64,000 bases of DNA from Myxococcales bacterium. GTDB lineage: Bacteria > Myxococcota_A > Polyangia > Polyangiales > DASUME01. Positions 30,348 to 53,192 of this stretch are shown here, one piece after another. The stretch's first letter is position 1, and each line of letters begins with the position of its first letter. The stretch is from assembly GCA_047601445.1 (NCBI GenBank), contig JASGJH010000001.1, forward strand, positions 8,480,001 through 8,544,000. The letters are read 5' to 3'. The position numbers were made by a program, and so were the translations under genes. Below the pieces are notes generated by a model. The model did no database searches. It saw nothing but the letters and a program-made list of their open reading frames with translations, and was not told the DNA's origin.

Positions 30348-30391
30348 TGGTCGGGGTGGCTGAATTCGAACCAACGACATCTGGCTCCCAA
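30348..30391 (-). repeat. Degenerate copy of the tRNA-Pro 3' half (old att site)
   Basis: 39/44 identity to 53116-53159 by my alignment. Confidence 0.85.
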
Positions 30392-31530: not shown

Positions 31531-31552
31531 GACTACTTGATTGGGGCTTGGG
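31323..31552 (+). repeat. Direct repeat copy 1 (~230 bp; 3' end of the OmpA-like gene)
   Basis: Aligns to 32222-32450, sharing GGATCCTGGAGCTACGGTGGAACCATGCGCCTCA exactly. Confidence 0.9.
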
Positions 31553-32189
31553 TCTGCCAGGGCCTTGGATTTAGGGTGGAAGCTAAGCTGGACGAGCTGC
31601 AAAGTCAGGTCGAGGCAGGCCACGTGAGCTTCGATGAGCGGGCGTTGGCCGGCTGCCTCACCGCGCTGAAGCGGGCGCGCGAGTCGCATGGGTTCGTGGC
31701 ACTGGGAGGACTGCTTCGAGCCGTTCAAGGGCGCCCAGGAATGCGAGGCACCAGACGGTGCGTCGTATTACGTGCTCGGCGTGGACGCGGCCGGAGAGAG
31801 CACCGAGGACGGTGTGTGCTGGGCGCCGCCCAAGCGCAAGCTCGGCGAGCCTTGCGACAGCACTTGCCACACCGAGTACTGCGGCTCAACTTGGGGAGAC
31901 AGCACGGGCAAGAACCCAGGGCGTGTGCTTCTTGGCGGTTGGACTGTTCTGCGATCAATGGCAACGCAAGTGTCAGCATCTGGTCGCGCGCGGCGGAGCC
32001 TGCGAAGACTCCGAGGCCTGCGTCTCCGGCAACTACTGCTCCGACGAAGGCCGCTGCATAACGCAGAAGGCCAAGGGCGAGGCCTGCCAGGACTACGCCG
32101 AGTGTGGCGCCAAGATGTATTGCAGCGACGGTACCTGTAGCGATCTCTCCTTCGCGTTCCCAGACCTATGCGAAGGCGACTACGACTGA
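31553..32189 (+). pseudogene. Fragmented Cys-rich (Dickkopf-like) secreted protein gene
   Basis: Pieces in three frames: VEAGHVSFDERALAGCL; GEPCDSTC; GGACEDSEAC...GEACQDYAEC...; 5' end missing. Confidence 0.65.
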
Positions 32190-32221
32190 GGTGGGCGCAC
32201 GTTGTCGCGGCGTGAGCACGG

Positions 32222-32450
32222 CCCGGGGGCACTATTGGATCCTGGAGCTACGGTGGAACCATGCGCCTCATCTTGAAAGAGGTGACCGAACACGATGGCA
32301 TAGTCGGCACGCGGCCGGGAATCAATCCCATCGAAGGCCGACCAGGCATTCAGATGCCGGGCCTCGGCTCGTCGAGCGAGGGGCACGCTCGCCTTGGTCA
32401 GCCAAGTTCTCCCGTTCACCGGTATTTGCGCTACTTGATTCGGGCTTGGT
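32222..32450 (+). repeat. Direct repeat copy 2 (degenerate, frameshifted)
   Basis: Diverged copy of 31323-31552 with substitutions and indels. Confidence 0.9.
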
Positions 32451-32800
32451 GTCCGCTCCCTCGAAGTTGCGTGAGCACGGCGGGATTCCCGAGCGTTCGT
32501 TCCTGGAGCCTTTGCGTCGACCACGGATTTGCTTCACGCGCCCAGTCGGGCTTGGCGCTGGGTAAGAGGCGGCTGCCGAGCACCAGTGAGACGAACTTGC
32601 TCTGGAGTGTCGAGCACTATGGCGATGCGCTCGCGGGAGACTTAGGCCGGACTCGGCGAGAGTGCGGATGACCGTGCCGAGGTTCGTGGCCGAAGGGACG
32701 TTAGTGAAGATAGGGCAAGCGACCTCCTAAGGAGATCCCGATAGGTGGAGTCCTGGGAGCGATGACCGGTGTGGCCGGACGGCGTGGTATCGTTCCTGCC

Positions 32801-33796
32801 ATGCAGAAACCAACAACCTGTCCCCTCTGCGACGCGATAGAGACGATGGAGCCGCGCCTTCAGCGCTCTCAGTTCGAGTGTGACCAGAACCGAGAGGACC
32901 GCTCGTTCCTCTTTCGGTGCGATCGGTGCGGCGACTTCGAGTTCGAGCACAACTTTCTAGCCGATGAAACGCGGGATCTGCGCCGGAGGTTGAAGGCTGA
33001 AATCGCAATCAGGTTTTCGGGCCTCGCAAGGGCCGCGACTGACGCACGCAAGCAGCTAGTGATCACCGCTGAGAACAGTGACGATCTTCTTCGTAGCTCA
33101 GCCCAGCCGAGGTCGGCGTTGCAATACCTTGATAGGCTGTTGGAGCTGCTCGCAGAGCAGTGCCCGTATCCCGGGGCGAGCACTCAACCTGGGAGCGTGC
33201 GGGCCTATGCAGCCCGCGTATATCTGCCGTCGGCTGCATTCTTACAGGCGGTCGAGCTCCTCATCACGGACAAGGCTATTGTCTGCAAGGACGGCGACCA
33301 TGAGCGCATGTCCTTCAGTCTCTTGCCCGAGGGATGGCGCCGGGCCGAGTTGCTTCGAAGAGGTGTCTCAAGGGGAGATAGGGCTTTCGTCGCGATGTGG
33401 TTCTCGGACTCGATGACGGAGACCTATGAATCTGGAATTCGTCCGGTCCTTGAAGCTGCCGGCTATTCACCTCCGTTCCGGGTCGATGACCGAGAGCACG
33501 ATGCTGCTCACGGGCAGCCGGACCACAGGCCCAGGATCGACGATCGAATCATCGCTGAGATACGGCGCGCTCGCTTCGTAGTCGCAGACGCAACTGGGGC
33601 GCGGATGAACGTCTACTACGAAGCTGGCTACGCGGAGGCACTCGGCCTGCCCGTCATCTGGTGTTGTCGAGAGGACGAGGTTGAGAAGATGCCGTTCGAT
33701 ACCCGGCAACTTTCTCACATCCTTTACAAGGACTCGGAGGAGTTGCGGAAGCGGCTGACCGACCGGGTTGAGCGGCTAGGGCTCGTTCGTAGGTAA
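32801..33796 (+). CDS. Zn-ribbon + nucleoside deoxyribosyltransferase/TIR-like domain protein
   Basis: CPLC...CDRC; FVAMWF...IDDRIIAEIRRARFVVADAT...NVYYEAGYAEALGLPVI...FDTRQ. Confidence 0.75.
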   Translation: MQKPTTCPLCDAIETMEPRLQRSQFECDQNREDRSFLFRCDRCGDFEFEHNFLADETRDLRRRLKAEIAIRFSGLARAATDARKQLVITAENSDDLLRSSAQPRSALQYLDRLLELLAEQCPYPGASTQPGSVRAYAARVYLPSAAFLQAVELLITDKAIVCKDGDHERMSFSLLPEGWRRAELLRRGVSRGDRAFVAMWFSDSMTETYESGIRPVLEAAGYSPPFRVDDREHDAAHGQPDHRPRIDDRIIAEIRRARFVVADATGARMNVYYEAGYAEALGLPVIWCCREDEVEKMPFDTRQLSHILYKDSEELRKRLTDRVERLGLVRR

Positions 33797-33924
33797 TTCA
33801 TTCGGTGTCAGACCACTCGATCGGGTAGCGGGGTGACGAACAGGAGTGCAGGCCTAGTTGGGTCTAGTTGGTAATGGGGACGGGCCTGTAGGATTGCTCC
33901 ATCCGCAGTCAGGAAGGTGCTTCG

Positions 33925-34215
33925 ATGACTTGGATAGTTTCATTCGAACTTGATTCTTCAGTGTCCCCCCTACAGCGCACGGCGCTCTACGTGCTGCTCC
34001 GGAAAGACAATGGCCTCTGTACGATCGTGAAAAGCGGAGAAAAAGAGCATCCAGTTGCCGATACGACGCTCATCGGAGCTGCCGCTGGCCTTGCAAGCAC
34101 GGCTGCCGACGTGAGTGGGAACCTCAAGAGCAAGATGGAGAGCAGCATCGGTACCATCAAGGCCACACGCATCGTCGGTGCGCTCCTCGATGGGGACGCA
34201 CTCTTCGCAATCTAG
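33925..34215 (+). CDS. Hypothetical protein
   Basis: 96-aa ORF, GGAAGG upstream. Confidence 0.5.
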   Translation: MTWIVSFELDSSVSPLQRTALYVLLRKDNGLCTIVKSGEKEHPVADTTLIGAAAGLASTAADVSGNLKSKMESSIGTIKATRIVGALLDGDALFAI

Positions 34216-34275
34216 CGAAGAGCGCCTGAGCACACTGGCGCAAGAATATGTCACAGCCGAAGTATACCATCTTCA

Positions 34276-34617
34276 TCAGCAGCACCTTTCCAGGATGGCC
34301 TTGGCTTCCTCGTAGCTGTCGGCTGCCGGAATGCGGCGAAGGGCCTGGCCTACGGCCCAATCGGGGTTGTTCTTCTTGAGCGGCTTCAGCTCAGTGGAGG
34401 CAATGTCCCAGGCTCGTGCAGTCTGGACGACTGGTGAGGGGGCAGCCTCCACGATAGTGAACCAGCCCCGTTGGAAGAGCGCATCGCCACCCTTGCTCGG
34501 GATACAGAACAGCTCCTCATTGGCTCCGCGCCCGTACTGTTGGATGAGCTGTGCGCGCCACTGTTCCTCGATGGACAACATCCCCCACGCGGTTCTCATG
34601 GTCGAAGGTGGCCCCAA
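34276..34617 (-). pseudogene. Phage terminase large subunit fragment
   Basis: EELFCIPSKGG..LFQRGWF...RAWDIASTE...PDWAVG, resembling the TerL RNase H-like nuclease region; far too short to be intact. Confidence 0.6.
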
Positions 34618-34841
34618 GGAGCTCGCTATCTGGCGGATCTATCTCATCGACGACGGGCAGTCCTTCCGTGTGGGACCCGGGTCCACGGCGTCGCTCGAAA
34701 TGTTCTCTTGGTACGAGCTGACCCTAAGCCGTTAGACACCAGGGACCACCCGAGCTCGACCGATCACGCGCACGGGGCTCACGTCCGATATGACAAGCTC
34801 CGGTAAAGCGCAGAGGTACCAAGGACACTCGGGAGGCAAGA

Positions 34842-35495
34842 ATGGAAGACGAGGAGACAAACAGTTTGAAGCGTGCCGGAAAGTCTGCGCTCGCTGCAGT
34901 CGCTACCGGCGTCGGACTAGTTGTGCCTGGTGGTGCCTTGGTAGGTCGACTGATTCAGCACGTCCAGGAGGTGCGTGAGGAGCGCCAGGCCGCAAAGAGC
35001 CGCGGCTTCTGTTTGCGCCTAATGCATGGCCTGAGCTCCGAGGAGGAGCAACAGACCTTCATGGGAGGGCTCGGGGCTCTACCCGAGTTTCCCGAACTCG
35101 TAGATGCGATGGGGGCTGACGTCGAGCTCGAGAAGGCCGACGTGTACGCCATGGCTGTGCTCCTTATCGTGCACGGGGACATACCTGTCGACTCGCGTCG
35201 CGATCTTGTGCACACCGTCCAGCAACTTCGGATGGAGGACTTCGCGTTTCTCGCGGCTGTCTGTTCGCAATCGCGCGAAGTAATAGAGCGCCCCACCAAC
35301 GACACCATAACCGGCTACGACGCCCGCCATAAGGGAATCATTGAACGGTTGCATCTCAATGGATGCCTGAGAGAGGGAGGTTTGGGCGTGTCGTTCCCGA
35401 CGCTCTTCGGAAGGCAGATCAACGGGTGGTTCCATTCATTGCTCCCAGCTGATGCGATCAAGAACGCAAGACACCCATCCAGGCCCCTGTGGTAA
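34842..35495 (+). CDS. Hypothetical protein (loosely Abi-alpha/DUF4393-like)
   Basis: 217-aa ORF with GGAGG RBS; VPGGALVG N-terminus; EKADVYA...QQLRMEDFAFL; wHTH-like end. Confidence 0.5.
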   Translation: MEDEETNSLKRAGKSALAAVATGVGLVVPGGALVGRLIQHVQEVREERQAAKSRGFCLRLMHGLSSEEEQQTFMGGLGALPEFPELVDAMGADVELEKADVYAMAVLLIVHGDIPVDSRRDLVHTVQQLRMEDFAFLAAVCSQSREVIERPTNDTITGYDARHKGIIERLHLNGCLREGGLGVSFPTLFGRQINGWFHSLLPADAIKNARHPSRPLW

Positions 35496-35715
35496 AGCAC
35501 CGCGGCACCAAGCGCTCCCACCGGGACCAGGCCGCTATCGAGGCTGCCCACGAGCATGCCCGCGTCGCGCGTGGCCCAGGGCATGCCGGCCGAGGAGCCC
35601 GAGCCGACGGCCACGGTGAGCCGCAAGTACAGTGCCGCCCGAGGTGGCAGCGCTCGAGCCGCAGGTCTGTGCGTGGGACCCGAAGCCGGGGGGCGCAGCC
35701 GAAGCGGCGGGGCGG

Positions 35716-36603
35716 TCAGTAGCCGGGAAACCGGGGGCTTCCAAGATTGAGAATGGCGTCGTCTCCAAGACCATTGAAGGTGCACCCGCTCAAGTAAGTT
35801 CGCCCAGCGTGGAAGATCTCGAGAGGGTTGCAGGAGCCGTAGAACGTCGTGTCGGACCTTCTCCTTGCGACGGGAGTTCCCAGCGGATCGCCGATTTGGA
35901 AATCCCACCCGTGGCCATGAATTCGAAACCCGTAATTGGTACCATCGATTTCGTAGCCATTGCCGAGGCCCATTTTCAGTCTCTCAACCTCGACCATGTT
36001 GTGTTCGGGTCGAAACGTCATAGTCGCGACAACATCTCTAGGTCCGTTGTTGATTTGCAGCTTCTGACCTTCGAGCGTGATGTCCCAGCTTCCCCGCGAG
36101 AACACGACCGCGTTGCCTTCCATGCGGAGGGTCTCACGACCTTCGAGGTCAGAAAGCGTTCCCCACAATTCCCATGGCGCGCCGGGGTCTTCAGGCATCT
36201 GAATCCCGACGAGTACTTTGCGATTTACGCAGACGGCGAGCCTAGCTCCTGGAGCTCGGGCTCTCACAAGCAGGCCACCCATTCGGATGACAGACGTTTG
36301 AGACACGTCGAATGTCGGCCAAACAGGCGGGTTGGCTTTGCAAAATGGATTCGATCTCCACCCTGCAACGGCTCTAGCCGAAATTCGTCCGGAGGTTTTT
36401 TCTTGATGATCGGTGGGGCACAGCAGGGCTATGCCCTCTGCGCGGTGCTCCTCTGCGTCCTCAAAGGGCGGGTCGAAGTGCTCGTAGTGAACGGGAAGCC
36501 TCCCGCACCGAACACAGCCGAAGCCGCACTGACGGCGTACCTCCCGCATCACAGTCTCTCTAAGATCGGACCGCCTAAGTCCGAAACGATTCGGGTCTGC
36601 CAT
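35716..36603 (-). CDS. HNH endonuclease domain protein with beta-rich C-terminal region
   Basis: VRRQCGFGCVRCG...YEHFDP...GIALLCPTDH. Confidence 0.75.
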   Translation of the reverse strand: MADPNRFGLRRSDLRETVMREVRRQCGFGCVRCGRLPVHYEHFDPPFEDAEEHRAEGIALLCPTDHQEKTSGRISARAVAGWRSNPFCKANPPVWPTFDVSQTSVIRMGGLLVRARAPGARLAVCVNRKVLVGIQMPEDPGAPWELWGTLSDLEGRETLRMEGNAVVFSRGSWDITLEGQKLQINNGPRDVVATMTFRPEHNMVEVERLKMGLGNGYEIDGTNYGFRIHGHGWDFQIGDPLGTPVARRRSDTTFYGSCNPLEIFHAGRTYLSGCTFNGLGDDAILNLGSPRFPGY

Positions 36604-37170
36604 TTGGTCGACTATCCTTTAGCCAAATCTACTTTTCCGATTCCAAGGGGCGCAAGCACGGCGGCCACGCGCTGGTCGAGCTCGGCGAGCACGTCAGGGT
36701 ACTTCTCGGCCACGATGGCGCGCGACTGCGCTACCTGAGTCGAGAGCTGCTCACGGGGACTTGGGCAGGCTGCTGACCGCGGCCTCGTCGCTTTGCAGCG
36801 CCGCGCACCCCTGGCCCTCGCAGCTCAAGATGGCCGCCACCTAGGCGTTGGAGCACGCCGCCGGCTTGATCTTGTGCTTCGTGAGCGTCTGCTGCAGCTC
36901 GGCGAGCTCGCGCTCGAGCTGCACGATGCCCTGACCGTCCTCGTGAAGCTGGGCCCTGTCCACCACGCCCGACTCCTTGCCGACCTCGCGCTCGGTGGCG
37001 AGCGAGGCCTCGAGCTGGGCAAGCAGTGACTTGGTAGAGCAGATTCGAACCTGCTGGCCGAGTTCCGCCGCAAGTAATTGCGAGTGGTGGGAACTGCCGG
37101 CGAAGAGGACACGCGGGCACTGGCCGAGGCTTGAAGCTCCCCCAGTTCCGTTGACACGCAGGAGAAACTG

Positions 37171-37509
37171 ATGCGTGTTCGGAAGCACAACAAGTACACC
37201 GATGAGTTCAAGGCAGAGACGATCGCGCTGATGAAGCGGGACGACCGCAGTTTTGCCCAGTTGTCCGTGGATTTAGGCATCAGCAGCTGGACCTTGCGGG
37301 AGTGGTACAACAGAGACGAGATGGCCAAGAAGAGCAAGCGGAAGCCGGGGGTACCGGTCGCTCCGGTACCTGCTGCTGAAACGGCAGAGGAGAAGGCGGC
37401 CCGGCTGGAGCGGGAGAACGAGCGGTTACGCAAGAAGGTGGAGTCGCTCGAAATGGACCGCGAAATCCTAAAAAAAGCGGCAGCCTTCTTCGCGAAGGAA
37501 AGCGAATGA
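37171..37509 (+). CDS. IS3 transposase OrfA
   Basis: KYTDEFKAE HTH; ILKKAAAFFAKE; A7G slippery site at 37470-37477. Confidence 0.93.
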   Translation: MRVRKHNKYTDEFKAETIALMKRDDRSFAQLSVDLGISSWTLREWYNRDEMAKKSKRKPGVPVAPVPAAETAEEKAARLERENERLRKKVESLEMDREILKKAAAFFAKESE

Positions 37510-38381
37510 GGTTCGCCTTCATCCACGCGGAGAAGGCGAACTTCCCGGTGTCAGCGCTGTGCCGGAACCTGCAGGTGACCCGGCAGGGGTACTACGCGTT
37601 CGCGAGTCGCCCGCCGAGTCCCCGTGCGGACCAGGACCGGGCCCTCTTGGAACGGGTCGGCCAGGTGCACGCGGAGAGCCGCAACGCCTACGGAAGTCCG
37701 CGAGTTCGAAAGGAACTCCGACGTCGTGGCATTCGGGTCGGCAAACGCCGGGTGGAGCGCGCCATGCGGAGCTTGGGGCTCTGCGCCCGGCCTCGTCGCC
37801 GGTTCCGTGTGACCACCGCTGCAAATCCGCGGCATCCAGTCGAGCCTAACGTGCTCAACCGCGAGTTCCGCGCCGAACGTCCCAATCAGCGCTGGGTGAC
37901 GGACATCTCGTACGTCTGGACCGACGAGGGCTGGTGCTACCTCGCTGTCATCATCGACCTGTTTTCCAGGACCGTCGTGGGCTGGGCTCTGGACGCCATG
38001 CTCTCGACCCAGCTGCCCCTCGCAGCGCTGGACATGGCGCTTCGGCGCCGTCGTCCCGACGCAGCAGGCCTGCTCCACCACTCTGACCGGGGCTGCCAGT
38101 ACACGAGTCAGGAATACCGCTCATCGCTCGCCCAGCACGGGCTCTCGGTCAGCATGAGCCGCAAGGGCAACTGCTGGGATAACGCGGTCGCGGAGAGCTT
38201 CTTTTCGACCATCAAGGCCGAGCTAATTCACGGCCGACGTTGGGCCGGACGCCTTGAGCTCCGGTCCGCAGTCTTCGAGTACATCGAGGTCTTCTACAAT
38301 CGGCGGAGGCTACATTCGTCACTGGGGTATCGGACCCCAGCCGAGTTCGAGAACGATTACACTGCGGCTCAGGCCGCCTAA
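37506..38381 (+). CDS. IS3 transposase OrfB (DDE), -1 frame to OrfA
   Basis: WVTDISY; HHSDRGCQY; GNCWDNAVAESFF; YNRRRLHSSLGY. Confidence 0.95.
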   Translation: MRFAFIHAEKANFPVSALCRNLQVTRQGYYAFASRPPSPRADQDRALLERVGQVHAESRNAYGSPRVRKELRRRGIRVGKRRVERAMRSLGLCARPRRRFRVTTAANPRHPVEPNVLNREFRAERPNQRWVTDISYVWTDEGWCYLAVIIDLFSRTVVGWALDAMLSTQLPLAALDMALRRRRPDAAGLLHHSDRGCQYTSQEYRSSLAQHGLSVSMSRKGNCWDNAVAESFFSTIKAELIHGRRWAGRLELRSAVFEYIEVFYNRRRLHSSLGYRTPAEFENDYTAAQAA

Positions 38382-38602
38382 GCAAGTGTCAACGGATTCG
38401 AGGGAAGCCCAGGCTCTCCTCCGCGGGGACTCGCTCGAGGTCGACGCCCACCTGCCCGAGAACACCATCGCGCTCGTTCCAGGGCGCGTGGTCTTCCAAA
38501 GCAAGGCGCACCTTGAGGCCATGGTCGAAGCGCTCACGGGCAAGCCCGTTGGGAACTCAGGTGCTGTCGTGCTGCCGTTTAGGCGAAAACCTGAATGAAA
38601 TC

Positions 38603-38648
38603 TGGTCGGGGTTGCCGGATTCGAACCAGCGACATCTAGCTCCCAAAG
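38603..38648 (-). repeat. att site: copy of the tRNA-Pro 3' half
   Basis: 44/46 identity to 53116-53161; match runs through the anticodon loop and stops just beyond it. Confidence 0.93.
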
Positions 38649-38851: not shown

Positions 38852-40282
38852 GTGGCAGCGAGCAAGAAGCGTCGTGGTCGAAAGCATCCGGGCGTGACGA
38901 TCATGAAGCCCAATCCAGCGCGACGGATTGGCTGGCGCCTCCGCTACAAGGACCCTGACTCAGGCAAAATGCGGTACGAAAGTCTCGACTCGGACGTCAC
39001 CACGGAGGATCGACGAGTCGACGCAGCTGTGCAGCGCTCGCGCGAGATTGGAGCGCGCGCTCTTGAAATCGATCGGGGCGCCGACCCACTGCACGGCAGT
39101 GATTTGGTTCAGGCCATTGCGGCGTACCATAAGGCCGCGGAGGTTGAGCTACGGGACAAGACCGTCGCGTTGTACAAGCGCGCGACGGACATGTTCCTGG
39201 AGTGGGCTAGGGCCCACGGCATCAAATCGACGAGGGATCTCAAGGCCGCCCGACTGCCCGGGTTCCGGGACTACTTGCTCGCGCAGCGAAAAAAGGCGTA
39301 CGTGCGAGGCGGCAAGCGTGGACAGCGTAAGGCGGGGAACGAGAAGCTCTCGCCGCAGACGATCAACTGGCAGCTGCGCGCCGTCAAGACCGCGCTCAAC
39401 CATCTTCGCTCACGAGGGATGGTGCCGCTCACGAGCGACGACATCGCCGATCGCCTAAAACCGGTGGAGGTCCCACAGGACGATCCGGAGTTCTTGCGTC
39501 CGCAGGAGTGCGTAGCTCTGCTCGAAGCCGCCCTGCGGCACGATGCTGAGACGTTCGCCGAGACTCGATCGGAGCACCGAGGTATCGGCACAGCGGGAAC
39601 GACGCCAAAATACGATCCGATTGCGCCACTCGTGGCCACCGTGCTCTTGGGGGGCTTTCGCATCGGCGAAGCGCTGGCTGTGCGATGGAGCGCCGTGGAT
39701 CTCGCTGTACTCGACAGCGAGGGTAAGCCCAAAGGCGAGATCCGCTTGAAGGCGAGCGAGACCAAGACGAAACGCGCACGCACCGTCGAACTGGGTGTGT
39801 CGCCATCGCTGCGTATTCTCCTCGCCACGATGAAGCTGAGGGCCGGGGATGCGCAGTTTGTGTTCGGCGGCGATGGGCCGATGCCCCGTTCGTCCGCGGA
39901 GGCTGCGCGGCGGCGCCTCGTCGGTGAAGTGCCCAAGAAGGCACGCAAGATCGAACCAAAGAAAAATCGCAAGCAAACGCCAGCGGTCGATTTTGGCGCA
40001 CCGCGCAACTTCACATGGCAGGCGCTTCGCTCGACTTGTGCCACCTACCAGTGCAATGCGCCCTCCATCTTTGGAGACGCGGCTGCGTTTAGAAGCGCTA
40101 AACGCTTGGGGCACTCAATCACCGTGAGCGAGAAGCTATACGCGAATCAGTTCTCGGTATCGCATGCTGCAAGGACGTTGGAGCAGGCCATGGGGATCGA
40201 GGCCATCATGGCTCGAGTCATCGAATCCGCGAGCGGCTACCGCGTGCCCGCGCCGCCTCTGCGAGCTGTGGCAGCAGAGTGA
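38852..40282 (+). CDS. int: Tyrosine recombinase/integrase
   Basis: GFRIGE (R), TKTK (K), WQALRST (HxxR variant), RLGHS, LYA (Y); lies beside the att copy. Confidence 0.88.
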   Translation: MAASKKRRGRKHPGVTIMKPNPARRIGWRLRYKDPDSGKMRYESLDSDVTTEDRRVDAAVQRSREIGARALEIDRGADPLHGSDLVQAIAAYHKAAEVELRDKTVALYKRATDMFLEWARAHGIKSTRDLKAARLPGFRDYLLAQRKKAYVRGGKRGQRKAGNEKLSPQTINWQLRAVKTALNHLRSRGMVPLTSDDIADRLKPVEVPQDDPEFLRPQECVALLEAALRHDAETFAETRSEHRGIGTAGTTPKYDPIAPLVATVLLGGFRIGEALAVRWSAVDLAVLDSEGKPKGEIRLKASETKTKRARTVELGVSPSLRILLATMKLRAGDAQFVFGGDGPMPRSSAEAARRRLVGEVPKKARKIEPKKNRKQTPAVDFGAPRNFTWQALRSTCATYQCNAPSIFGDAAAFRSAKRLGHSITVSEKLYANQFSVSHAARTLEQAMGIEAIMARVIESASGYRVPAPPLRAVAAE

Positions 40283-41097: not shown

Positions 41098-41299
41098 CCA
41101 CTGATTACGATCAGGCGAGCAACTGGGGAGGTGGTGTCCCCAAGACCCCAGGGGGCACGTTCGACGAAGGTGCCTTCCCATGAGAGTCCAAACGAACGAG
41201 CTGCTCGCCGTTGCCGCAACCGGCAAGCACGCTCTCAATCCGAATAAAACCTGCGGACACACCTGCCTCGACAGCGCTTCGAGCGTAACCAGCGAGGCT

Positions 41300-41578
41300 A
41301 TGAACCTGGGAGCAGTCGCGCTTCTCTCAGAACTGATTCGCGCCAGCGTGCGCGAAGAACTCGAGTCAGCTCGCATCGCGTTTGCTCCGCCGCCGGCGGC
41401 TGCCTTGTCTTCGCACGTCGATGTCAAAGAGGCCCGCGTACTCCTGCGCTGCAGCGACAAGACCGTGCGCCGCATGGTGGATCGCGGTCTGCTCAAGAAG
41501 GCCAAGTTGGGGCTCGGGGAGGGCTCAAAGCTGCTGATTTCTCGCGAATCAATCGATCAAGTTCTGGGGGGTGTGTGA
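41300..41578 (+). CDS. HTH_17/excisionase-like DNA-binding protein
   Basis: VDVKEARVLLRCSDKTVRRMVDRGLL...LLISRESI. Confidence 0.8.
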   Translation: MNLGAVALLSELIRASVREELESARIAFAPPPAAALSSHVDVKEARVLLRCSDKTVRRMVDRGLLKKAKLGLGEGSKLLISRESIDQVLGGV

Positions 41579-43938
41579 TGGGTACGAGTGAAGTTCTCTA
41601 CAGCGAGTCGTCCTTGGCCGAGGCGGCGAAATGGTACGCCCACCAGCAGCTCTTCGTGTTGCCGTGCGCGCCGAAGCAGAAGGTTCCGGCGATCAAAGGC
41701 GGGCGTGGTAGTCGCGATGCGAGCAATGATCCGGCCTTCCTCGAATCCATCTGGAATGAGAATCCAGCGTTCAACATCGGCATCGCCACGGGGAGCCGCT
41801 CCCAGGTGGACGTGCTCGATGTGGACGGCGAGTCTGGCGAAGCAGCGCTTGCCGCTCTCGAAGCGGAGCACGGGCCTCTGCCGGTAACCCCGACTGTCCG
41901 CACAGGGAAGGGGCGCCACTTCTACTTCAAGGCCGTGGACGGCTTGCGGAATAGCCAACGGAAGCTCGGGCCTGGTCTCGACATCCGTTCTGAGGGCGGG
42001 CACGTGGTCGCTCCCCCGAGCATTCATCCCAGCGGGGCGCGCTACGAGTGGGTTGAAGGGCGTCGACCTGATCAGGTGCGCCCGGCTCCTATGCCGCAGT
42101 GGATCATCGATCTCCTGCGCTCGACGAGTATTTTGCAAGTGTCGTCCTTAAGTGTCGCGGCGAGCACGACCACCCCGTACGCGCATAAGGCGCTGGAAGA
42201 TGAATGCAGCGCAGTAGCCAACACTCCCAAGGGGAATCGGAATGGGCGCCTTAACCAGGCAGCGTTCGCACTCGGGCAGCTGATTGGTGCGGGCGCTCTC
42301 GACGAAAACGAGGCGCGCGCCGAACTGACCGTTGCCGCCTCCGCATGCGGACTCCCCGCAGGCGAGGCACGCCGCACGATCGACAGCGGCCTTGAAAGCG
42401 GAAAAACGCAACCGCGCATCATCCCGGACGCGAGCGCGCGCGTGTCGGAGAATCGCTTTCATGTCTCGTCCGAGTGGAGCGAGGCCGCTGAACTTCCGGG
42501 GCTGCTGCCCGTGCCGAAGTGGGACGAGCGTCTGCTGCCCGAGGTGCTGCGCCCGTGGCTGTGTGACGTTGTCGAGCGCACTCAGTGTCCCCCGGAGTAC
42601 CCAGCAGTCGGAGCAATGGTTGCTCTTTCTTCGACCGTAGGACGCGGGTGTGCGATCAGGCCCAAGTGCCAGGACGATTGGACTGTCGTGCCGAACCTTT
42701 GGGGCGCGTTGGTAGGGCCTCCGAGTGCGATGAAAACGCCGGCGCTTCGGGAGGCGCTGCGCCCGTTGAATGCGCTGGCCGCCGCGTCTTCGGAGGCTTA
42801 TGCGGAACATGCTTTCGACCGCGAGCAGATCGCCTCGCAGCGAGCTGCTCTGAAGGCGCAGATGGACAAACTTGCAAAGGCCGGCCATGACTTGGCAGAG
42901 CTGCGGCCGGAATACGAGATGCTGAATCAGCGTGAAGCCCAGCTGAAGGGCGAACGCCGCTACATCGTTCACGATGCGACGATCGAAAAGCTGGGGGAGT
43001 TGCTGCAGGCCTGCCCGCGTGGCGTCCTGCAGTTCCGCGACGAGCTTGCCGGCTGGTTCGCCTCCTTGGATCGTCCGGGGCACGAGAGCGATCGAGCGTT
43101 CTTTCTTGAAGCGTGGAACGGCAATGATGGCTTCACCTATGACCGCGTGGGTAGGGGAACGGTGCGCATCGAGGCCGCCTGTGTGTCCGTCTTGGGGGGT
43201 ATCCAGCCGGGGCCGCTTGGCCGGCATCTTCGCGCGGCGGAGTCCGGCGGTGTTGGGGCTGATGGCCTAATGCAGCGCTTCCAGCTCCTCGTCTATCCGG
43301 ATCAGTCGCGCGATTGGCGGAACGTGGACCGCTGGCCAAACTCGGTGGCCCGCGATCGAGCGCATGCCCTGTACAAGCGCCTTGCCCACGCCACTGCCCA
43401 GGAAATGGGCGCAGATCAGGACGCGGACATCCCGTTCGTGCGGTTCGACGATGAAGGCCAAGAGTTCTTCGATCATTGGCGGTACACGCTTGAGAAGCGC
43501 CTTCGCGCCGGCGAGGAGTCGGATGCAATGGAGGGGCACCTCGCCAAGTATCGTTCGCTGCATCCCAGTCTCGCGCTGCTTTTCCAACTTGCTGACCACG
43601 GGCGTGGCCCAGTGGGGCTCGTGGCCGCTCAGCGCGCGGCGTCGTGGTGCGCACTTCTTGAGGCGCATGCTCGCCGCGTGTACGGATCGACGTCGGCGGG
43701 GCCCGTCGCTGCGGCGCGCGTCATCCTCACGAAGCTTCGCGCGCGCAAGCTGCCAAACCCTTTCACGAAGCGCGACATCTGTCGTCCCGAATGGGCCGGG
43801 CTGAGCGACTCAGCCGTCGTCGAGGCCGGCCTACACGTACTCGAGCAACACGGCTGGTTGCGCACGTTGTCCGTGCCCACGGGAGGTAGGCCGCGGGAGG
43901 AGATTCACATTCACCCCTCGCTGCTCGGGGGCCGCTGA
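41578..43938 (+). CDS. Bifunctional primase/polymerase (Prim-Pol) fused to a DUF3987/YfjI-like domain
   Basis: NIGIATG; VLDVDG; TVRTGKGRHFYF; DIRSEGGHVVAPPSIH; then VPNLWGALVGPPSAMKTP, FRDELAGW, GGIQP, DGLMQRFQL. Confidence 0.88.
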   Translation: MGTSEVLYSESSLAEAAKWYAHQQLFVLPCAPKQKVPAIKGGRGSRDASNDPAFLESIWNENPAFNIGIATGSRSQVDVLDVDGESGEAALAALEAEHGPLPVTPTVRTGKGRHFYFKAVDGLRNSQRKLGPGLDIRSEGGHVVAPPSIHPSGARYEWVEGRRPDQVRPAPMPQWIIDLLRSTSILQVSSLSVAASTTTPYAHKALEDECSAVANTPKGNRNGRLNQAAFALGQLIGAGALDENEARAELTVAASACGLPAGEARRTIDSGLESGKTQPRIIPDASARVSENRFHVSSEWSEAAELPGLLPVPKWDERLLPEVLRPWLCDVVERTQCPPEYPAVGAMVALSSTVGRGCAIRPKCQDDWTVVPNLWGALVGPPSAMKTPALREALRPLNALAAASSEAYAEHAFDREQIASQRAALKAQMDKLAKAGHDLAELRPEYEMLNQREAQLKGERRYIVHDATIEKLGELLQACPRGVLQFRDELAGWFASLDRPGHESDRAFFLEAWNGNDGFTYDRVGRGTVRIEAACVSVLGGIQPGPLGRHLRAAESGGVGADGLMQRFQLLVYPDQSRDWRNVDRWPNSVARDRAHALYKRLAHATAQEMGADQDADIPFVRFDDEGQEFFDHWRYTLEKRLRAGEESDAMEGHLAKYRSLHPSLALLFQLADHGRGPVGLVAAQRAASWCALLEAHARRVYGSTSAGPVAAARVILTKLRARKLPNPFTKRDICRPEWAGLSDSAVVEAGLHVLEQHGWLRTLSVPTGGRPREEIHIHPSLLGGR

Positions 43939-44730: not shown

Positions 44731-46091
44731 TCACTTGTCCTGAGGGCCATTTTTTCCGAAGAACACGTGAATGTCGTGCTGCGGGTGAGCCAGACGATTG
44801 CTCGCTCCCCTTCTCACAAGAACTCTGTTGTCTGCATCGAAGTAGGGAGGCTCGGTTCCCGGGGCTACCTTGATCACGACGAGATGAGTGCCTTTGTACA
44901 GGATCGGAGTTGTGCTGAAGTCTGGAGCTTTCGCCGATAGACGAAGTCTGATGGCGTCACGAATCGCGGCGCAGTAGATCGTCAGGCCCCATTCTCCGCG
45001 TCAATGGACTTCTCTTTAGCCCACTTGCGAAACCATCCCTCGGACACGATGTCCCGGCATTGAATGTAGTCGCTTACGCCCAGGAGGATTGTTCCGCCGT
45101 CCGTGTTCGCGAACGCCACCACGGCTTCCACGATCTCCCGAAGCTTTTCGGAGTGGCCCGGCGCAACCGCGGGCTTGAACTCGACCATTCGATTCTCGCC
45201 CGACTCGAGGCACTGTTCTACGAGTTGTTGAAGTTCCGGAATCACCGCTCGCTTGATCGTCACGACCCGATTCGAGTCTCGGCCTTTAGCTGCATACCAA
45301 TGATCCACGGTGGTGCCTGCCTCGTCGACCAGCGCGATCTCATGATTCCGACCCTCCAAAGGGATCCGCGTCCACGGGATTGCCGGCTCGCTGAACGCCC
45401 GCCACTGGTCTCCAACGTAGGAGCCGCCCTTCACCCTCCAACCCTGGCCTTCCTCGGCGCTGATAATGGTTTCGATCTCGGCCGAACGCCGGCCCCACTG
45501 GATTGCACCAATCTGCCCGCGAAGGTCGGGAATGAAGAGAACGAAGCCGCCGGTTCTGGAATCGTTTGCTCCGCCGTAGGATGGGAACCGGCACCACGAC
45601 TTTGCGGCCACATAGATGTTTGGAAAATAGTCGTGCATCTCGCCGCGGCCCGTGACGTGCTCGTGGACGTTGGGAATGTCATGAGCTGCGCGTCCCTCGC
45701 ACCAGATCGCGACTCCCGGCCAACGAGAGAGGCCATTTTCTGAAGGGCACCGGAGCGTCGTGAACGTTGGATCGGGCTTCGGCTCGAATCCCGCGACTGG
45801 AAAACTCGTCAGGCCGCGCGCAATGGCTGCCTCGAGCACGTCCACATCCATCTCTGACTCCTCAAGGACGAGGCCGTTCTGGTACTCGAGTCGGCCACGG
45901 AGGACGGTTTGCTCATCCACGGACTGTCCGATAACTGTGGTCAGAACATTCCGTGCGATTCCTTGAAGGTTCACGTAGGCGGCTTTGACGATGAACCGAG
46001 CGATGCGTCCTCGATTTGTCTTGAGTGCGGAGCTCGCGATCTGGCGGGTGTCCTCCGGTGACTGGTTGCTCCGCAGATAAATGCCGTCCAT
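44731..46091 (-). CDS. Unknown N-terminal domain + C-terminal Schlafen/AlbA_2 domain (one frameshift at ~44988)
   Basis: GENRMVEFK...VVAFANTDGGTILLGVSD; adding one G to the GGGG run continues into LVVIKVAPGTEPPYF...VRRGASNR, stop at 44731. Confidence 0.8.
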
Positions 46092-46343: not shown

Positions 46344-47752
46344 ATGGATTCAGGTCTAGCCCAGCGCCGAATGGCACTCTTGAAATCATTCATCGCGGAA
46401 GCCGAGAGATACTCAAGATATGGGCACGCCTCTTCGGGTGGCACCATCGACGATTTGGCGTCCATGGCGAACGAAAGCGCTGCCGCTAGGTCTGCGCTCA
46501 ATCGCATGGTGGTGGCCACAAAGGAGGCTACACAAGCTGCAGGCCTATCGTGCCTGATCACCGTCAGGCCGCCACGGGGGCGTTCGGGGCTAATCCATGA
46601 TGATGTGGACGTCTTCGAGCAACTGTTCACTGGCCCGTATGACGTGGATCTGGTCTCAACCGCTGCCGAACTCGCAGAGAAGGCGCTCGGCGTATATCAG
46701 CATCACGCGGAAGGTTTGCTTCAACTTGGAGCCGAGCAAGTCGAGACTGAGCAAGGGCATCGCAAGTACACGATTTTCATCAGCAGCACCTACGAGGACT
46801 TGAAGGAGCAGCGCGATCTTGTAGCGAAGGCCATTCTTGAGATGGGTCACATTCCGGTAGGAATGGAGATGTTCAGCGCTGCAGACGAAGAGCAATGGAA
46901 AATCATCCAGCGTGCGATCGACGATAGCGACTATTACGTAGTTGTCCTCGCGCATCGCTATGGTTCGCTCACCGGCGAGATTAGCTACACGGAGAAGGAG
47001 TACGACTACGCGGCGGAGCGAGGCATCCCGTGCTTAGGGTTTATTCTCCGGGATGACGCGCCGTGGCCGCACAATCATCGCGATCCCGAGTCAGCAAAGG
47101 TGGAGGCGCTCAAATCGTTCAAAAAGAAGGTTGAGCGAAAACCCGTGGGGTACTGGAAGAGCCAGGACGAGCTTCATGGCAAGGTGGCTGTCGCGCTAAT
47201 GAAAGCGTTCAACGCCCAACGTCGTCCAGGTTGGTGCGGGGACCCGGGACAACCGACCCGAACATGGTTGCGGAGTTCGCCAGGTTGAGTAGGGAGAACG
47301 AGGCGCTTCGCAAGGAACTTGAAGTGGCGCGCGCAGAACAGGAGACAGATCGAAAGCATGCGCGTCTTTGTGAAATCCTTGCCAGCAACAGAGTTGCGTT
47401 TCTGGTAGGTTGGGACGATATTCCCGAGCGGCAGGTTCAGGCAACTCTCCTGGATGTCTTTGGTTGGTTGGCTCCGAACCTCGTTGATCCGATGACGACT
47501 GAGTGGGCGTCTCGGATTGTCGCCTCCTCCGCCTTACGCGAATCAGCCCATCGAGAGATCCGCGCCACAGGAGACTCGCACACCATTTTCGTGCAGGCGT
47601 TTACCGACTTCATGGCGTACGGACTAGTGAGTGCGAAGCCAAATGGCGTCGGGAATACCAAGTGGACAATCACTGCGAGCGGACTCGACTTCCAATCGTT
47701 CCTGCGCCGGAGGCGAATGGAGTCCCAGGTTCGTGAGGGATTGCCTGTGTAG
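46344..47752 (+). CDS. DUF4062 (TIR-like) domain protein with N- and C-terminal extensions (one frameshift at ~47233)
   Basis: KYTIFISSTYEDLKEQR; GMEMF; IDDSDYYVVVLAHRYGS; SYTEKEYDYA; one added G restores RPGWVR and joins ORF 47231-47752. Confidence 0.82.
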
Positions 47753-47826: not shown

Positions 47827-48756
47827 CTAACCCCGAATCGGCAGCAGGCTCCCACCGACCTCAACACCGTCATACCCGAATGATTGGAGCAGTCCATGCA
47901 GAGCGTGGCCGGCGACGTCCCGATTCGCGGTTGGACCGTGAAGGACGCCAGAGATCGGGAGCGTTGCACGCGGGGTCCCGCTCGGTAGCGGGCGGCCGTA
48001 TTCGATGTACGGCGTCAAGCCGTACCTTCCAACCCTATACTTCGCGCCATTCCAGGGCCCGCTCTCTCCGCAAACCAACCGCCACTCTTGCTCGGCCTTA
48101 AAGGCGGGATGCTTGAAAGCGAGGAGTAGTCGCAGAAGAGGTTGATGAATGTATACGCGCAGCGCCTTATCCGATTTGTCGACATCGCCATCATCGGGGA
48201 AGTGGGTCTCCGCATACTTGACGACGATCCCTAGTAGTTCATCAAGCAGTGCCCGTTGCTCATCTTCCTCGTATACGACCCGGATTAGAGAGAAGTGGTG
48301 ACGTGGCCGTGCTTCCTCTTGCCCTTGGAGAAGTTCTCCGGTGTTGAAGCGAAGGGAGTAGCCATCGTTGGGCGCATACACTCGCCACTGATTGAGCAGA
48401 TTTCCGTCCTCACAAAAACACGCCACGTAGAATGCAAACTGGGTCGTCACCCATTGTCCCTTGAATGGCTCCAACAGTCGGCGCGCGGCTGCGTTGTGAG
48501 TTCCTTTCAAGCAATCATCGATTGCCTGGTCGAGGACAAGGAGCGGATAAAGCGATTCGGACGAGTCGTTGAGGTACAGTGAGTTAGTTGCCCAGAGGCA
48601 ACCGTGCTCGAGTATCCCGATAAGTCCGCGTACGTCGGTATAGTGGTAGAGGTATTTGGGGGGCGTCGAGTGCAGTTGCTCCGCTTTCGCCCTTTGGAGC
48701 TCGCTCGGAAATGCCTCTATGATTTCTAGACGCTGCTGAGCGTTGCGGAAAGCCAT
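47827..48756 (-). CDS. DUF2971 family protein
   Basis: LYHYT...GIL...LWAT...YLND; YVACF...LLNQWRVYA; FKHPAFKAEQEWR. Confidence 0.82.
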   Translation of the reverse strand: MAFRNAQQRLEIIEAFPSELQRAKAEQLHSTPPKYLYHYTDVRGLIGILEHGCLWATNSLYLNDSSESLYPLLVLDQAIDDCLKGTHNAAARRLLEPFKGQWVTTQFAFYVACFCEDGNLLNQWRVYAPNDGYSLRFNTGELLQGQEEARPRHHFSLIRVVYEEDEQRALLDELLGIVVKYAETHFPDDGDVDKSDKALRVYIHQPLLRLLLAFKHPAFKAEQEWRLVCGESGPWNGAKYRVGRYGLTPYIEYGRPLPSGTPRATLPISGVLHGPTANRDVAGHALHGLLQSFGYDGVEVGGSLLPIRG

Positions 48757-49041
48757 GACGAGTAGGCTCTCATGAGCCCGACAGCGGTACCAGTCCTTCC
48801 TCTTGGGGCTCGCAAAGGTTCCGTCAGCATGGGCGCGCACGCTCGCCGATCCGGTTTCGGCCGGCCACGGCGGGCTACCGCAGTTCAGCGGCCGGCGCGC
48901 CGGCACCTGCCAGGAAGCTTGACAAGGGCCCGGGAACGCCCCCCGGGCGGTACAGAGGCTTTCGAGCTCCACTATGTTGCGGTAGAATCGGGACACTCGG
49001 CCGCGCCTACTCTCCGTAGAGCGCTGTGGCGCATCGGACTT

Positions 49042-51082
49042 ATGTATCTAAGAACTCTCACACTGAAGAACTTTCGTTCCTGCGCAGAAACAACCGTCAA
49101 GCTCGATAGCGTGCTTACTGTGTTGGCAGGCGAAAACAACGCCGGTAAGAGCAATATCCTCGATGCGCTTAGGCTGGTGTCGGCGCCGTCCGATACCCGC
49201 CGAGGGCGCAGTTTTGACGTCGACGACCTGCGAATGGGCGCTGGAAGACTTCAGCTAAGCGCCGAGTTTGCCGAGCTCGACGCGGCCCAACGTGGCCTGT
49301 TTTTTACCGCATTAAAGAGCAACAACTCGGACGAGGCGCTCTATCACCTATCGTGGGAGCCACCTCTCGGCCGTTCAAGGCGTCGGTGGGCGTCGTGGAC
49401 GACGGGCGCTTCAGGCGCTCCGGAACAGGAGCCCGATGTTCGGGATCTTATTCGGCACGTCCATCTCCCCGCGCTTCGCGATGCCGATCGAGACTTGGCC
49501 TCGAGTAGCCCAGGTCGGATTCGAGTTCCTGTTGCGTCAACTGCTTGCCGGCAACGACGAAGAAAAGGAAAAGCTACTTCGAAGCGTGCGCTCAGCATCG
49601 ACGACACTGCTTAAGGAGCGCCCACTTCATGCTGCGCGAGAGCGCGTAAGCGAGGTGTTTCGTCCTCTGTCCGCAGGGTTTCACGCGCACGACGCTCATC
49701 TACGATTTGCCGACGCCTCGCTCGTAGGCCTTGCTCGCGACCTGCGGTTCTCTCTGTCGCATGAGGGGTTGGACCCCGATCGTGTTCTTCAGACGGGGCT
49801 CGGCTATTCAAACTTGTTGTATTTGGCGACTGTTCTCGTAGAGCTGGATGCCGCACGCGACGCCGAGCTGACCTTGCTACTGGTTGAGGAGCCGGAGGCA
49901 CACCTGCATCCGCAGCTGCAACGCGCGACGCTGGCCTTTCTAGAGGGAAAGGCGAAGGAGTCTGCGAACAGAAAGTCTGTGCCAGGAGAGCATGCCGGCC
50001 GCATTCAGGTTGTCGTTTCGACCCACTCACCAAATCTAACGGCCGCCACTTCGATCGAGCGGCTGGTCATAATGCGAGCAACTCGGACACGGCCTTCGGT
50101 CCCGGCACGACCTGGCGAGGTTAGGGAACTACCCCCGGTGGGCCGCGCGCCCGTGGAGGGTAACATCGCCGAGTCTATTCCTGGTGACCAAAACTCCGTC
50201 GCACCTGGCACAGGTTCCGAGGCACAGCACAGCATCTCGGCCCCGACTGAATCTTTCGCAGTGGCGATCCGAGACCTCGAGCTGCCAAAGCAGGATTTGC
50301 GCAAGATCGATCGCTATCTTGATGTTACTAAGTCGACTTTGTTGTTCGGGCGCAAAGTGCTGCTGGTGGAAGGCATCGCAGAGGCTCTGCTGATCCCGGT
50401 GCTGGCCGAGTTGGTTCTCACACCCGCGGAGATGGCGAGCTTTCGTGCAGTCTCCGTGGTCGCCATCGACGGGGTGGACTTTGAACCGTACGTGCGGCTG
50501 CTCCTGACGGCACCAAAAGGTACAGCGAACTCGATCGCGGACCGCGTGGTGGTTGTTACGGACGAGGATCCTTCCGCCTCCACGCAGGCGAGCAAATCCG
50601 CGCAGCAAACTGAGGCGGAGCCAGATGAGGGGGCCAATGCAGCGGCTGGGCCACCCGTTGCAAAGAAAACCAAAGGCGCGCGAGCAGCAGGACACACACG
50701 GAAGCAAGGGCTCGAGAAACTTGCTGCGGAGCACGGAGCGACTGAGCGTCTACACGTTGAGCTTACCCCGCTAACGTTTGAGGCCTCCTTATTATCCAGC
50801 ACCCCGACGGCCGCCGCCGCTGGCGAGTTCGTGAAACTAGCATTCGCATCTTGCGATGGAGGGGAGCAGCGTGACAAGGCGTGGGCCACGCGGATAGACG
50901 CGTTTCCGATCGAGGAGCGGGGTAAGCGATTCGTCGAGTGGCTAAAGTCAACCGGCACGCGAAAGGGAGACTTCGCCCAGGCCCTGGCGCAGGTCATCGA
51001 GCAGAAGCGAGCAACCGAAGCGAACTCGCGCTTTCCAGTTCCAGAGCACCTCGTTCGCGCTTTGCGGGTGCTGGTCGGATGA
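49042..51082 (+). CDS. OLD-family ATP-dependent nuclease (ABC ATPase + TOPRIM), GajA-like (one frameshift at ~49521)
   Basis: LKNFRS; GENNAGKS; GLGYSNL; LLVEEPEAHLHPQLQ; STHSP; LLVEGIAE; TDED; removing one T joins the two ORFs. Confidence 0.88.
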
Positions 51083-52842
51083 CGAAATCGAGCAAGCCAA
51101 CGAACGAGCAGCTTTCAGTTGTCGGGGCTGGTGGGCATCTCCTGGTGCGTGCTTGCCCCGGGGCTGGAAAAACCAGGACCATGGTCGCCTTGGGGGAGCG
51201 GGCTGCTGCAACGGGAGGAGCTCGCTCCGGAGTAGCGTTTCTGTCGTTTACGAATGCTGCAGTTGACGAACTGAACCAGCGTCTTTGTGACACTGCAACG
51301 AATAGGGGGATGACGCGCGCACCGCACTACACGGGGACGTTCGACGCGTTCCTGATCAAGTATGTGCTTGGACCTGATGGGCACTCGCATGCGCCAGGTA
51401 TTCGGGTGCAGTTTCGAGACCACTGGGGAGGGCACCCTATCCGTTTCAAGGCAGGAAAGACGACAATGAGCGTTCCGCTCGATGTCTTTCTTCCAAACGG
51501 TCGCACAGTACGGCTCGACAAGAACCGAGCTCCTCACGGAGCCTATGCGCTACGCGCGTTCTTAGAGCGGCTTGATCAGCAGGAACGCGAGCGCCTGTGC
51601 GAGATTGGGAATCAGGAAGTACGGCGGCGCCTCAAGGCTGGTATCCTGACCTCTCCGTTTCTGCGCTCGGAGGCAAGGAAGCGGCTCGGTCGCGATCGTG
51701 CCAATGCGCATTTGGCCGCGCGCTTTCACACGGTAATAGTTGACGAGGCCCAGGACTGTGACGCAGTTGACCTGGAAATCTTGGACGCGCTCAAAACGGC
51801 TGGCTGCCGTTGCGTCGTGGTTGCCGACCCCGAGCAGGCAATCTTTCGGTGGCGTGATGCGGATCCAGCGCGCCTCTCGCTCCTAGGCTTTCCAGAGATG
51901 AGACTGACTGGCAACTTCCGGTCGAGCGACACGATTTGCCGAGCCGCTGCCACACTGCGAAGCGTCGAGAGTGAACCAGATACCGCCCTGGGACCTGCTG
52001 CCATGGTTCAGAATCCAGTCATTGTGGTGCCCTTCAGCACGGATGATCTCGATTCGGGTAAGGTTTTGGCTGAGTTTACTCAGGCACTCGAGCGAGCCGG
52101 CATAGATACCAAGAGTGCTGCGATTGTTGCTCATCGCGAGGCGCATGCTGGCCGCGTACTTGGAATACGCGACGACATAAGAGCATCAGAATCGTTTGCA
52201 GCTGTGCTGGCGCGGGGTAGTTCTTCGAGTGCCAGCTCGGCAGACCGAACAGCGGCTGTCCAACGACTGCAGGAAACCCTGGCGAGCGCGTTTGATCCGG
52301 CAGCTCGGCAAGATCCGAATCTGAAAGGGTGGATTCATCACACAGCCCGACAGGTGATGGGAGAGCTTGCGGGCCAACACATTTCCTTGTCTGGGGTGTG
52401 TAAGAGTACGAGGAAGATCCTGGCAGGGATCAGTGCGCCGCCGGGTCAGTCGTTTATCAAGGAGCCTGCGAAGTGCTTCACCGCGAAAGGCCGTGGCGCT
52501 GTCACTCCATCTAGCAACTCACCGGGTCCCCTGATGCGGTACTCAACTGTGCATGCCGTTAAGGGGCGAGAATACGACGCAGTCCTCGTGGTGGTTGGCG
52601 ACACAAGTTATTTGGATGAGCTCGTTGACGCATGGCGCGCACGCGACCCGGCCCACGAGGGGCGCGCGGTTCTCTATGTTGCAGCTACTCGCGCGCGCCG
52701 ACTGTTGGTGTTCGCTGTTCCCGCGCGCGTCTGCGACGCGGTTGCGGAACTGCTGAGGCGCCAAGGAGCGCCTGTTCAAGTCGCCTCGGGAGCTCGGGAG
52801 ACCGAGTTCGTGCTGCGTTGGAGCGCGTTGGAAACGGCCTGA
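51079..52842 (+). CDS. UvrD-like helicase, GajB-like
   Basis: ACPGAGKT; LSFTNAA; VDEAQD; DPEQAIF; NFRS; STVHAVKGREY; YVAATRAR; ATGA overlap with the OLD gene. Confidence 0.9.
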   Translation: MTKSSKPTNEQLSVVGAGGHLLVRACPGAGKTRTMVALGERAAATGGARSGVAFLSFTNAAVDELNQRLCDTATNRGMTRAPHYTGTFDAFLIKYVLGPDGHSHAPGIRVQFRDHWGGHPIRFKAGKTTMSVPLDVFLPNGRTVRLDKNRAPHGAYALRAFLERLDQQERERLCEIGNQEVRRRLKAGILTSPFLRSEARKRLGRDRANAHLAARFHTVIVDEAQDCDAVDLEILDALKTAGCRCVVVADPEQAIFRWRDADPARLSLLGFPEMRLTGNFRSSDTICRAAATLRSVESEPDTALGPAAMVQNPVIVVPFSTDDLDSGKVLAEFTQALERAGIDTKSAAIVAHREAHAGRVLGIRDDIRASESFAAVLARGSSSSASSADRTAAVQRLQETLASAFDPAARQDPNLKGWIHHTARQVMGELAGQHISLSGVCKSTRKILAGISAPPGQSFIKEPAKCFTAKGRGAVTPSSNSPGPLMRYSTVHAVKGREYDAVLVVVGDTSYLDELVDAWRARDPAHEGRAVLYVAATRARRLLVFAVPARVCDAVAELLRRQGAPVQVASGARETEFVLRWSALETA

Positions 52843-53052: not shown

Positions 53053-53118
53053 ACCCTTTAACGCACCGAAGGGCTGAACGGTGCCCGCCCAACCCTTCGG
53101 AAACACTCTGTCTTTTAG

Positions 53119-53192
53119 TCGGGGTGGCCGGATTCGAACCAGCGACATCTAGCTCCCAAAGCTAGCGCACTACCAGGCTGTGCTACACCCCG
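53119..53192 (-). tRNA. tRNA-Pro (TGG)
   Basis: Cloverleaf: CGGGGTG/CACCCCG acceptor, GCAC/GTGC D-stem, CTAGC-TTTGGGA-GCTAG anticodon arm, GCTGG-TTCGAAT-CCGGC T-arm; CCA not encoded. Confidence 0.97.

Follow-up and report, generated by a model that had tools for sequence, protein, structure and literature searches.

A Schlafen gene of reversed domain order as a probable anti-phage cargo of a tRNA-Pro-integrated element

A tRNA-Pro-integrated element and its Schlafen gene

Within the window, by which we mean the whole 64,000-nucleotide stretch of Myxococcales DNA that was analysed, we found a 14.5 kb element lying between an att-like repeat and a tRNA-Pro gene, with a GC content of 61 % compared with 66 % for the genome. 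A Schlafen gene forms part of its cargo, alongside DUF4062, DUF2971 and Gabija genes (Table 1). The DUF4062 gene additionally has a weak TIR_2 match, an N-terminal extension and, past an apparent frameshift that was joined by frame inspection rather than by homologue comparison, a tail of coiled-coil/wHTH appearance; GajA contains long low-complexity insertions. To the left of the element, the region 30347–38604 (GC 61 %), which begins at a third and more diverged att-like copy of the tRNA-Pro (30347–30391; 89 % over 45 bp), may be a second, tandem island using this tRNA gene. An IS3-like element at 37171–38381 recurs in near-identical form at other genomic sites, and ORFs at 32762–33796 and 35716–36603 match unknown PHROGs. 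The latter (minus strand, 295 aa; phrog_6544, E 5e-36) carries CxxCxxC and HxxHxD motifs, appears HNH-like by eye and gave no Pfam or PADLOC match; it is a possible defence cargo gene. A gene region containing an RHS core (TIGR03696; 27567–30078, plus strand) is located just left of the tandem islands.

Table 1. Features of the integrated element and of its Schlafen gene (window coordinates)
Feature	Position	Strand	Evidence or remark
att-like direct repeat, left end	38605..38648	.	blastn, 43/44 bases identical to 3' part of tRNA-Pro
Tyrosine integrase	38852..40282	+	PHROG integrase, E 2.8e-22
HTH_17, excisionase-like	41180..41578	+	Pfam, E 7e-9
Prim-Pol + DUF3987 replication protein	41575..43938	+	Pfam, E 5e-42 and 5e-78
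Schlafen/AlbA_2 gene	44731..46091	-	Carries intact Ex4ExK motif
Predicted alpha/beta domain, residues 1–188, without named family	45528..46091	-	AlphaFold2, conserved motif, no Pfam match
Predicted Ig-like/FnIII-like beta-sandwich, residues 190–268	45288..45524	-	Predicted fold
Schlafen/AlbA_2 first half, residues 287–369	44985..45233	-	PF04326 and translation
Ex4ExK	45174..45197	-	Within Schlafen first half
AFANTDGG.ILLGV	45075..45116	-	Within Schlafen first half
One-base frameshift interval (base missing)	44985..45000	-	Three-frame translation, comparison with P0002
Schlafen/AlbA_2 second half, shifted frame, to stop 44731–44733	44731..45000	-	Pfam profile 65–116, identity to P0002
DUF4062 gene, divergent, apparent frameshift (one base missing) near 47235	46374..47752	+	Pfam, E 5e-29
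DUF2971 gene	47827..48996	-	Pfam, E 6e-11
GajA (Gabija), one extra base near 49520	49042..51082	+	PADLOC PDLC00073 1–165 and 164–587, two frames
GajB (Gabija helicase), intact	51079..52842	+	PADLOC, E 1.4e-104
tRNA-Pro(TGG), integration target, right end	53118..53192	-	ARAGORN and repeat

As assembled, the Schlafen ORF specifies 369 aa (44982..46091, minus strand), and the protein ends halfway through its nuclease domain. Pfam SLFN_AlbA_2 (PF04326) aligned with residues 299–343 over profile positions 1–43 (35.4 bits, above the cut-off), whilst the translation contains both ENRMVEFK (E299, E304 and K306) and AFANTDGGTILLGV. These results bear out the sequence-only reading, which had placed a Schlafen/AlbA_2 domain with E..VEFK and AFANTDGG.ILLGV motifs at the C-terminus. 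Its further claim, that the domain is completed beyond a 1-nt frameshift, also held: profile positions 65–116 were detected in another frame (44734–44994, E 7.8e-5), which terminates at the TGA at 44731–44733, and the downstream piece aligns over 79 aa with residues 371–448 of P0002 (38 % identity, E 5e-17), an intact homologue of 450 aa whose N-terminal part shares 41 % identity with the window protein. As the interval is bounded by two stops, the switch of frame is confined to 44985–45000, where the coding strand has a run of four G (44987–44990) and where codon-position GC shifts register. The read-through product, computed from the coordinates, is 453 aa long, with residues 287–298 modelled by AlphaFold2 as the first Schlafen helix.

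We lean towards an assembly error as the source of this frameshift, which would leave the actual copy intact; the somewhat less probable alternative is that the gene is a genuine pseudogene and the defence island is in decay, whereby this allele yields a truncated and inactive protein even if the family is defensive. Decay is favoured by the presence of three single-base shifts in the element cargo (in the Schlafen, DUF4062 and GajA genes), set against 0.38 expected from a genome-wide floor of 59 sites in 2.05 Mb (2.9 per 100 kb, resting on 4194 of 4930 queries); with the ascertained Schlafen shift discounted, the two further shifts have a P value of 0.057. Across the genome, pseudogene-like marks comprise 56 in-frame stops versus 52 shifts, whilst the integrase, Prim-Pol and GajB genes of the element are intact. 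Moreover, IS copies are free of internal indels, which argues against poor accuracy genome-wide. In disagreement with decay, however, none of the pieces shows an in-frame stop or large deletion, the att copies still agree at 43 of 44 bases, two of the shifts are losses at G runs, and one shift lies in a GATC-like context. Furthermore, a 13.4 kb segment that is duplicated in this single-contig assembly (contig positions 123599–136964 and 9455897–9469255; 99.7 % identical) differs by 10 indels versus 11 substitutions, with 7 of the 21 differences next to GATC (background 7.5 %, p 6e-4), and we take such indel-rich, GATC-clustered differences to resemble long-read error. This pattern possibly reflects an assembly artefact or methylation-linked read errors.

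The N-terminal module and its family

The N-terminal region had been described from the sequence as a single, beta-rich stretch of ∼290 aa that matched nothing recognizable. The second part of that description was upheld, as we found no Pfam match in any of 10 family members, no NCBIfam match and, among PDB sequences, nothing with an E-value under 0.9. The first was not: an AlphaFold2 model built from 28 sequences (block pLDDT 69–96, compared with only 34 for single-sequence prediction) resolves it, up to about residue 270, into an alpha/beta domain and a following Ig-like sandwich. The 'possibly novel sensor' suggested earlier is thus upheld only in part: the first half has no named family, its best lead being the Juno/VPA1262 N-terminus, whilst the second is Ig-like. 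The alpha/beta domain is marked by the conserved pattern Y/F-P-D..A...W..F..YHG..D.R.G...hP; A162, W166, D177 and P188 are invariant across the module alignment, and R179 and R191 are listed with W166 and D177 among the invariant polar or aromatic residues. With queries other than domain 1–188 by itself, Foldseek returned no PDB match at E ≤ 0.001, so that the domain may still have a known fold, and its nine matches at E ≤ 0.001 in a viral library all had TM ≤ 0.2 by query. Atlas feature searches gave no usable match, and an Argonaute/APAZ or ApeA identity, considered as a lead, found no support in Pfam. In the Atlas structure search, the alpha/beta domain was placed at TM 0.56–0.73 to unnamed clusters. 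An Atlas cluster of 82 members, mostly archaeal, has the same architecture as the family (TM 0.72).

A phmmer search with residues 1–290 against 1.84 billion representatives identified nine relatives apart from the query: seven with a C-terminal Schlafen domain, one 106 aa fragment and P0010, which has a different, unnamed tail. A word-seeded search with the same residues recovered the query alone, and a profile search gave 33 proteins: besides the query itself, 20 have the module, one of which had been found before, and 12 match through Schlafen only. Intact relatives are 431–474 aa long. The Ex4ExK motif is kept in all 27 Schlafen-bearing members examined; for P0006 and P0019 the true site was read from the sequence, the automatic match being a spurious earlier one. 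P0010 and P0028 share the N-terminal module followed by an unrelated tail of ∼100 aa that has no Schlafen domain and no Pfam match; P0028 (L007:1680–2810) lies directly downstream of an integrase. As these two proteins carry another tail, the front module can travel without Schlafen.

The distribution of the family is sparse and patchy. It was found in none of 60 relatives of the source genome (nine of the same genus; completeness 54–100 %) and in three of 400 genomes from the class of Sulfuriferula (one genome unscored), whilst a tblastn search of plasmids and phages with a central member gave no match. A single own-phylum candidate among 400 other genomes was rejected owing to its marginal E-value (7.6e-4) and an internal stop. 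The 7999 candidates that were scored included no longer fusion forms, though this negative carries little weight.

Relationship to known Schlafens and to Juno

Prokaryotic Schlafen tRNases are an established class of defence proteins, and interest centres on what the many domains fused to them detect. In RorSlfn5, the Schlafen domain is N-terminal and the C-terminal Ig-like domain is a proven phage sensor; the protein binds the tail assembly chaperone of T5 and, with Mn2+, cleaves the anticodon arms of tRNA, with Ex4ExK as the catalytic motif in both SLFN11 and RorSlfn5 (Perez Taboada et al., Nat Microbiol 2026, PMC13056530). The window protein resembles the pSlfn5 group in being a single gene with PF04326, an Ex4(E/D)xK motif, a fused Ig-like domain and a defence-island context (Gabija in the same element), features that place it among the prokaryotic Schlafens (pSlfn) and within the pSlfn5 catalogue, which takes Schlafen plus Ig-like in either order and is an automatic domain-content bin rather than a demonstrated homology group. 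In the pSlfn5 proteins reported as tested (Ror, Pag and Sfo) Schlafen comes first and Ig-like last, whereas the window protein and its family have the reverse order and a module that begins with the 188-residue alpha/beta domain. The family is thus an order-reversed branch of a known class. Nor is the arrangement itself new: the pSlfn5 bin already holds 17 Ig-first/Schlafen-last proteins of ∼400–460 aa (PMC13056530, supplementary file 21), and the one examined, WP_014043682.1 from a Streptomyces plasmid, carries the module, matching our profile with 17.5 bits over 190 positions (controls: ≤ 7.8 bits in 4930 genome ORFs and ≤ 3.0 in 1000 shuffles). The catalogue's labels for the front part vary from one to three Ig domains to snake-toxin-like, in keeping with a domain that departs from a typical Ig.

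Cash, a CRISPR-associated Schlafen tRNase whose fused sensor activates it via a change of oligomer and which is switched on by cA4 (PMC13462974; PDB 9YLU), is likewise a prokaryotic Schlafen with a fused sensor. Our family profile matched CbCash over the Schlafen part (E 8.8e-4); the Csx15 sensor, cA4 signal and type III CRISPR context described for Cash were not seen in the window family. Papers on BREX, CoCoNuT and serine recombinases concern other architectures, and a literature search returned no paper describing the module or a Juno–Schlafen link.

The link to Juno arose from the structure search, in which unnamed Atlas clusters of 482–544 aa (TM 0.60–0.68 over ∼250 residues) and of 960 aa were returned for the module, some having PLDc_2 in 10 % of members. 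The clusters, which are not named VPA1262, agree with the VPA1262 family in size (487–597 aa) and PLD-like tail and may belong to it. VPA1262 has been renamed Juno (NF040700), and Juno alone is reported to protect E. coli > 100-fold against T4, Bas35, Bas45 and lambda-vir, four of 12 phages (bioRxiv 10.64898/2026.08.01.741415). From genomes and plasmids we assembled 15 Juno members (taking 11 of 14 plasmid matches), which are 487–597 aa long and have a C-terminal PLD-like PLDc_2 match in two of five scanned. Aligned by hhalign with three Juno alignments, the 19-sequence module profile scored 34.2 (238 columns, P 0.0012), 33.2 (216 columns, P 0.0018) and 24.7 (179 columns, P 0.026), compared with 13.8–18.5 for reversed controls (16.5 against the score of 34.2) and maxima of 19.3–23.4 for 12 block shuffles per alignment (at most 23.4 against the score of 34.2), with hhalign probabilities of just 2–19 % and single-sequence HMM scores at noise. 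The alignments are colinear, fall in the N-terminal ∼270 residues of Juno and keep the D-R-x-G-x-h-h-h-x-x-P strand in register. An earlier, shallow comparison was weak (P 0.016); NF040700 gave no match at E ≤ 0.01 in the 10 family members scanned and none over its cut-off in 201 class-level genomes. The sequence link is therefore suggestive, and we put the chance that the module is shared with the Juno N-terminus at about even. Equally balanced is the broader proposal that this ∼270-residue alpha/beta plus Ig module is a widespread phage-sensing unit with interchangeable effectors, namely Schlafen, the PLD-like domain that Juno has in its place, and the tail of P0010 and P0028. A VPA1262/Juno member of 1027 aa (L025:52–3132, minus strand), kept out of the 15 used above, is by size and position an apparent fusion of Juno with a ∼480 aa protein that lies directly downstream in L024 and L027.

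Defence neighbours and the proposed function

In order to describe the surroundings of the family we fetched 13 loci, dropped two of < 2 kb and merged two pairs judged duplicates by ORF size rather than alignment (L008/L009 and L012/L013), leaving nine distinct loci. PADLOC was run on 100 of the 123 called ORFs at a cut-off of E ≤ 1e-10, giving single-HMM matches rather than whole systems. Eight of the nine loci had a defence match, a raw count with no matched control from loci mostly of one clade (45–69 % identity to query P0028, its own locus aside); to that extent the homologues are defence-linked. The family gene adjoins a type IIG RM system (L004, where it belongs to Sulfuriferula multivorans), Olokun (L005) or Gabija (L012), and the remaining matches are a type III methylase and HEC-01 beside the non-Schlafen form (L007), type I RM (L009), PDC-M63A (L010), PDC-S46 with PDC-S05 (L011) and capH/capP homologues (L014). 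For housekeeping genes, a baseline of 0.13–0.19 defence genes per neighbourhood has been reported (PMC13056530). At L006 the gene lies within a molybdenum-cofactor operon, where PADLOC detected no defence gene nearby, and PADLOC models matched neither the window protein nor two intact homologues. Integrases occur near the family gene at L007, L013 and L014.

Taken with the conserved motif and the island context, these neighbours lend support to the earlier proposal of a one-gene sensor-effector defence protein, and the window gene, located on a small mobile island, probably codes for a one-gene defence against phage. For the family as a whole, we think it rather likely, by analogy, that its members act as stand-alone anti-phage sensor-effectors. 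The N-terminal module would keep the C-terminal Schlafen domain inactive until it bound a trigger produced by the phage, which would most likely be a protein; binding would rearrange the oligomer, the Ex4ExK metal site would then cut tRNA, and stalled translation would lower phage yield. The module would be swappable: in P0010 and P0028 another tail follows it, and in Juno it is probably followed by the PLD-like nuclease. The tRNase activity, trigger binding and oligomer switch are borrowed from what is reported for other prokaryotic Schlafens (RorSlfn5 and Cash). This anti-phage reading draws on the motif in 27/27 members, a mobile element shared with Gabija, patchy distribution, defence matches at 8/9 loci, the Ig-like sensor of RorSlfn5, the module's non-Schlafen tails and the Juno alignment. 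Weighing against it are the locus without a defence neighbour, the lack of a PADLOC match, the one-clade and uncontrolled set of loci, the finding that only two of seven prokaryotic Schlafens tested protected E. coli (PMC13056530), the low Juno probabilities and an effector that is truncated as assembled.

Two other functions are improbable. In the first, the gene would encode either a regulator or a toxin that serves stress responses or addiction to the mobile element; the module would be its own antitoxin or a scaffold, and the Schlafen domain would act on host RNA or bind nucleic acid. The ∼30 % of prokaryotic Schlafens reported to be without defence neighbours (PMC13056530), the L006 copy among housekeeping genes and the nearby integrases are consistent with this, whereas retention of the catalytic motif throughout and the recurrent placement beside RM, Gabija, Olokun and CapH/CapP are not, and a single partnerless gene would be ill-suited to post-segregational killing. 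In the second, which we rate marginally lower still, the module would sense nucleic acid, a small signal or another defence system, with Schlafen as a back-up effector for RM or Gabija. Here, the invariant W166, D177, R179 and R191 could line a ligand pocket, much as cA4 activates the Cash Schlafens (PMC13462974), and the gene directly adjoins RM, Olokun or Gabija at several loci; yet these residues could simply form the hinge between the two domains, and since neighbours vary between loci there is no fixed partner.

If the module is indeed a unit shared between effectors, it would represent a new sensor family spanning bacteria and archaea, and sharing it would give Juno its first mechanism. 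Juno escape mutants would in that case point to the trigger for both families, and swapping effectors would directly test whether they have the sensor in common. Finally, the capH/capP homologues in L014 (79–2843) immediately precede a family member that is intact. As CapH/CapP are tied to DNA-damage-induced expression, this arrangement suggests that the family member may be induced in the same manner.
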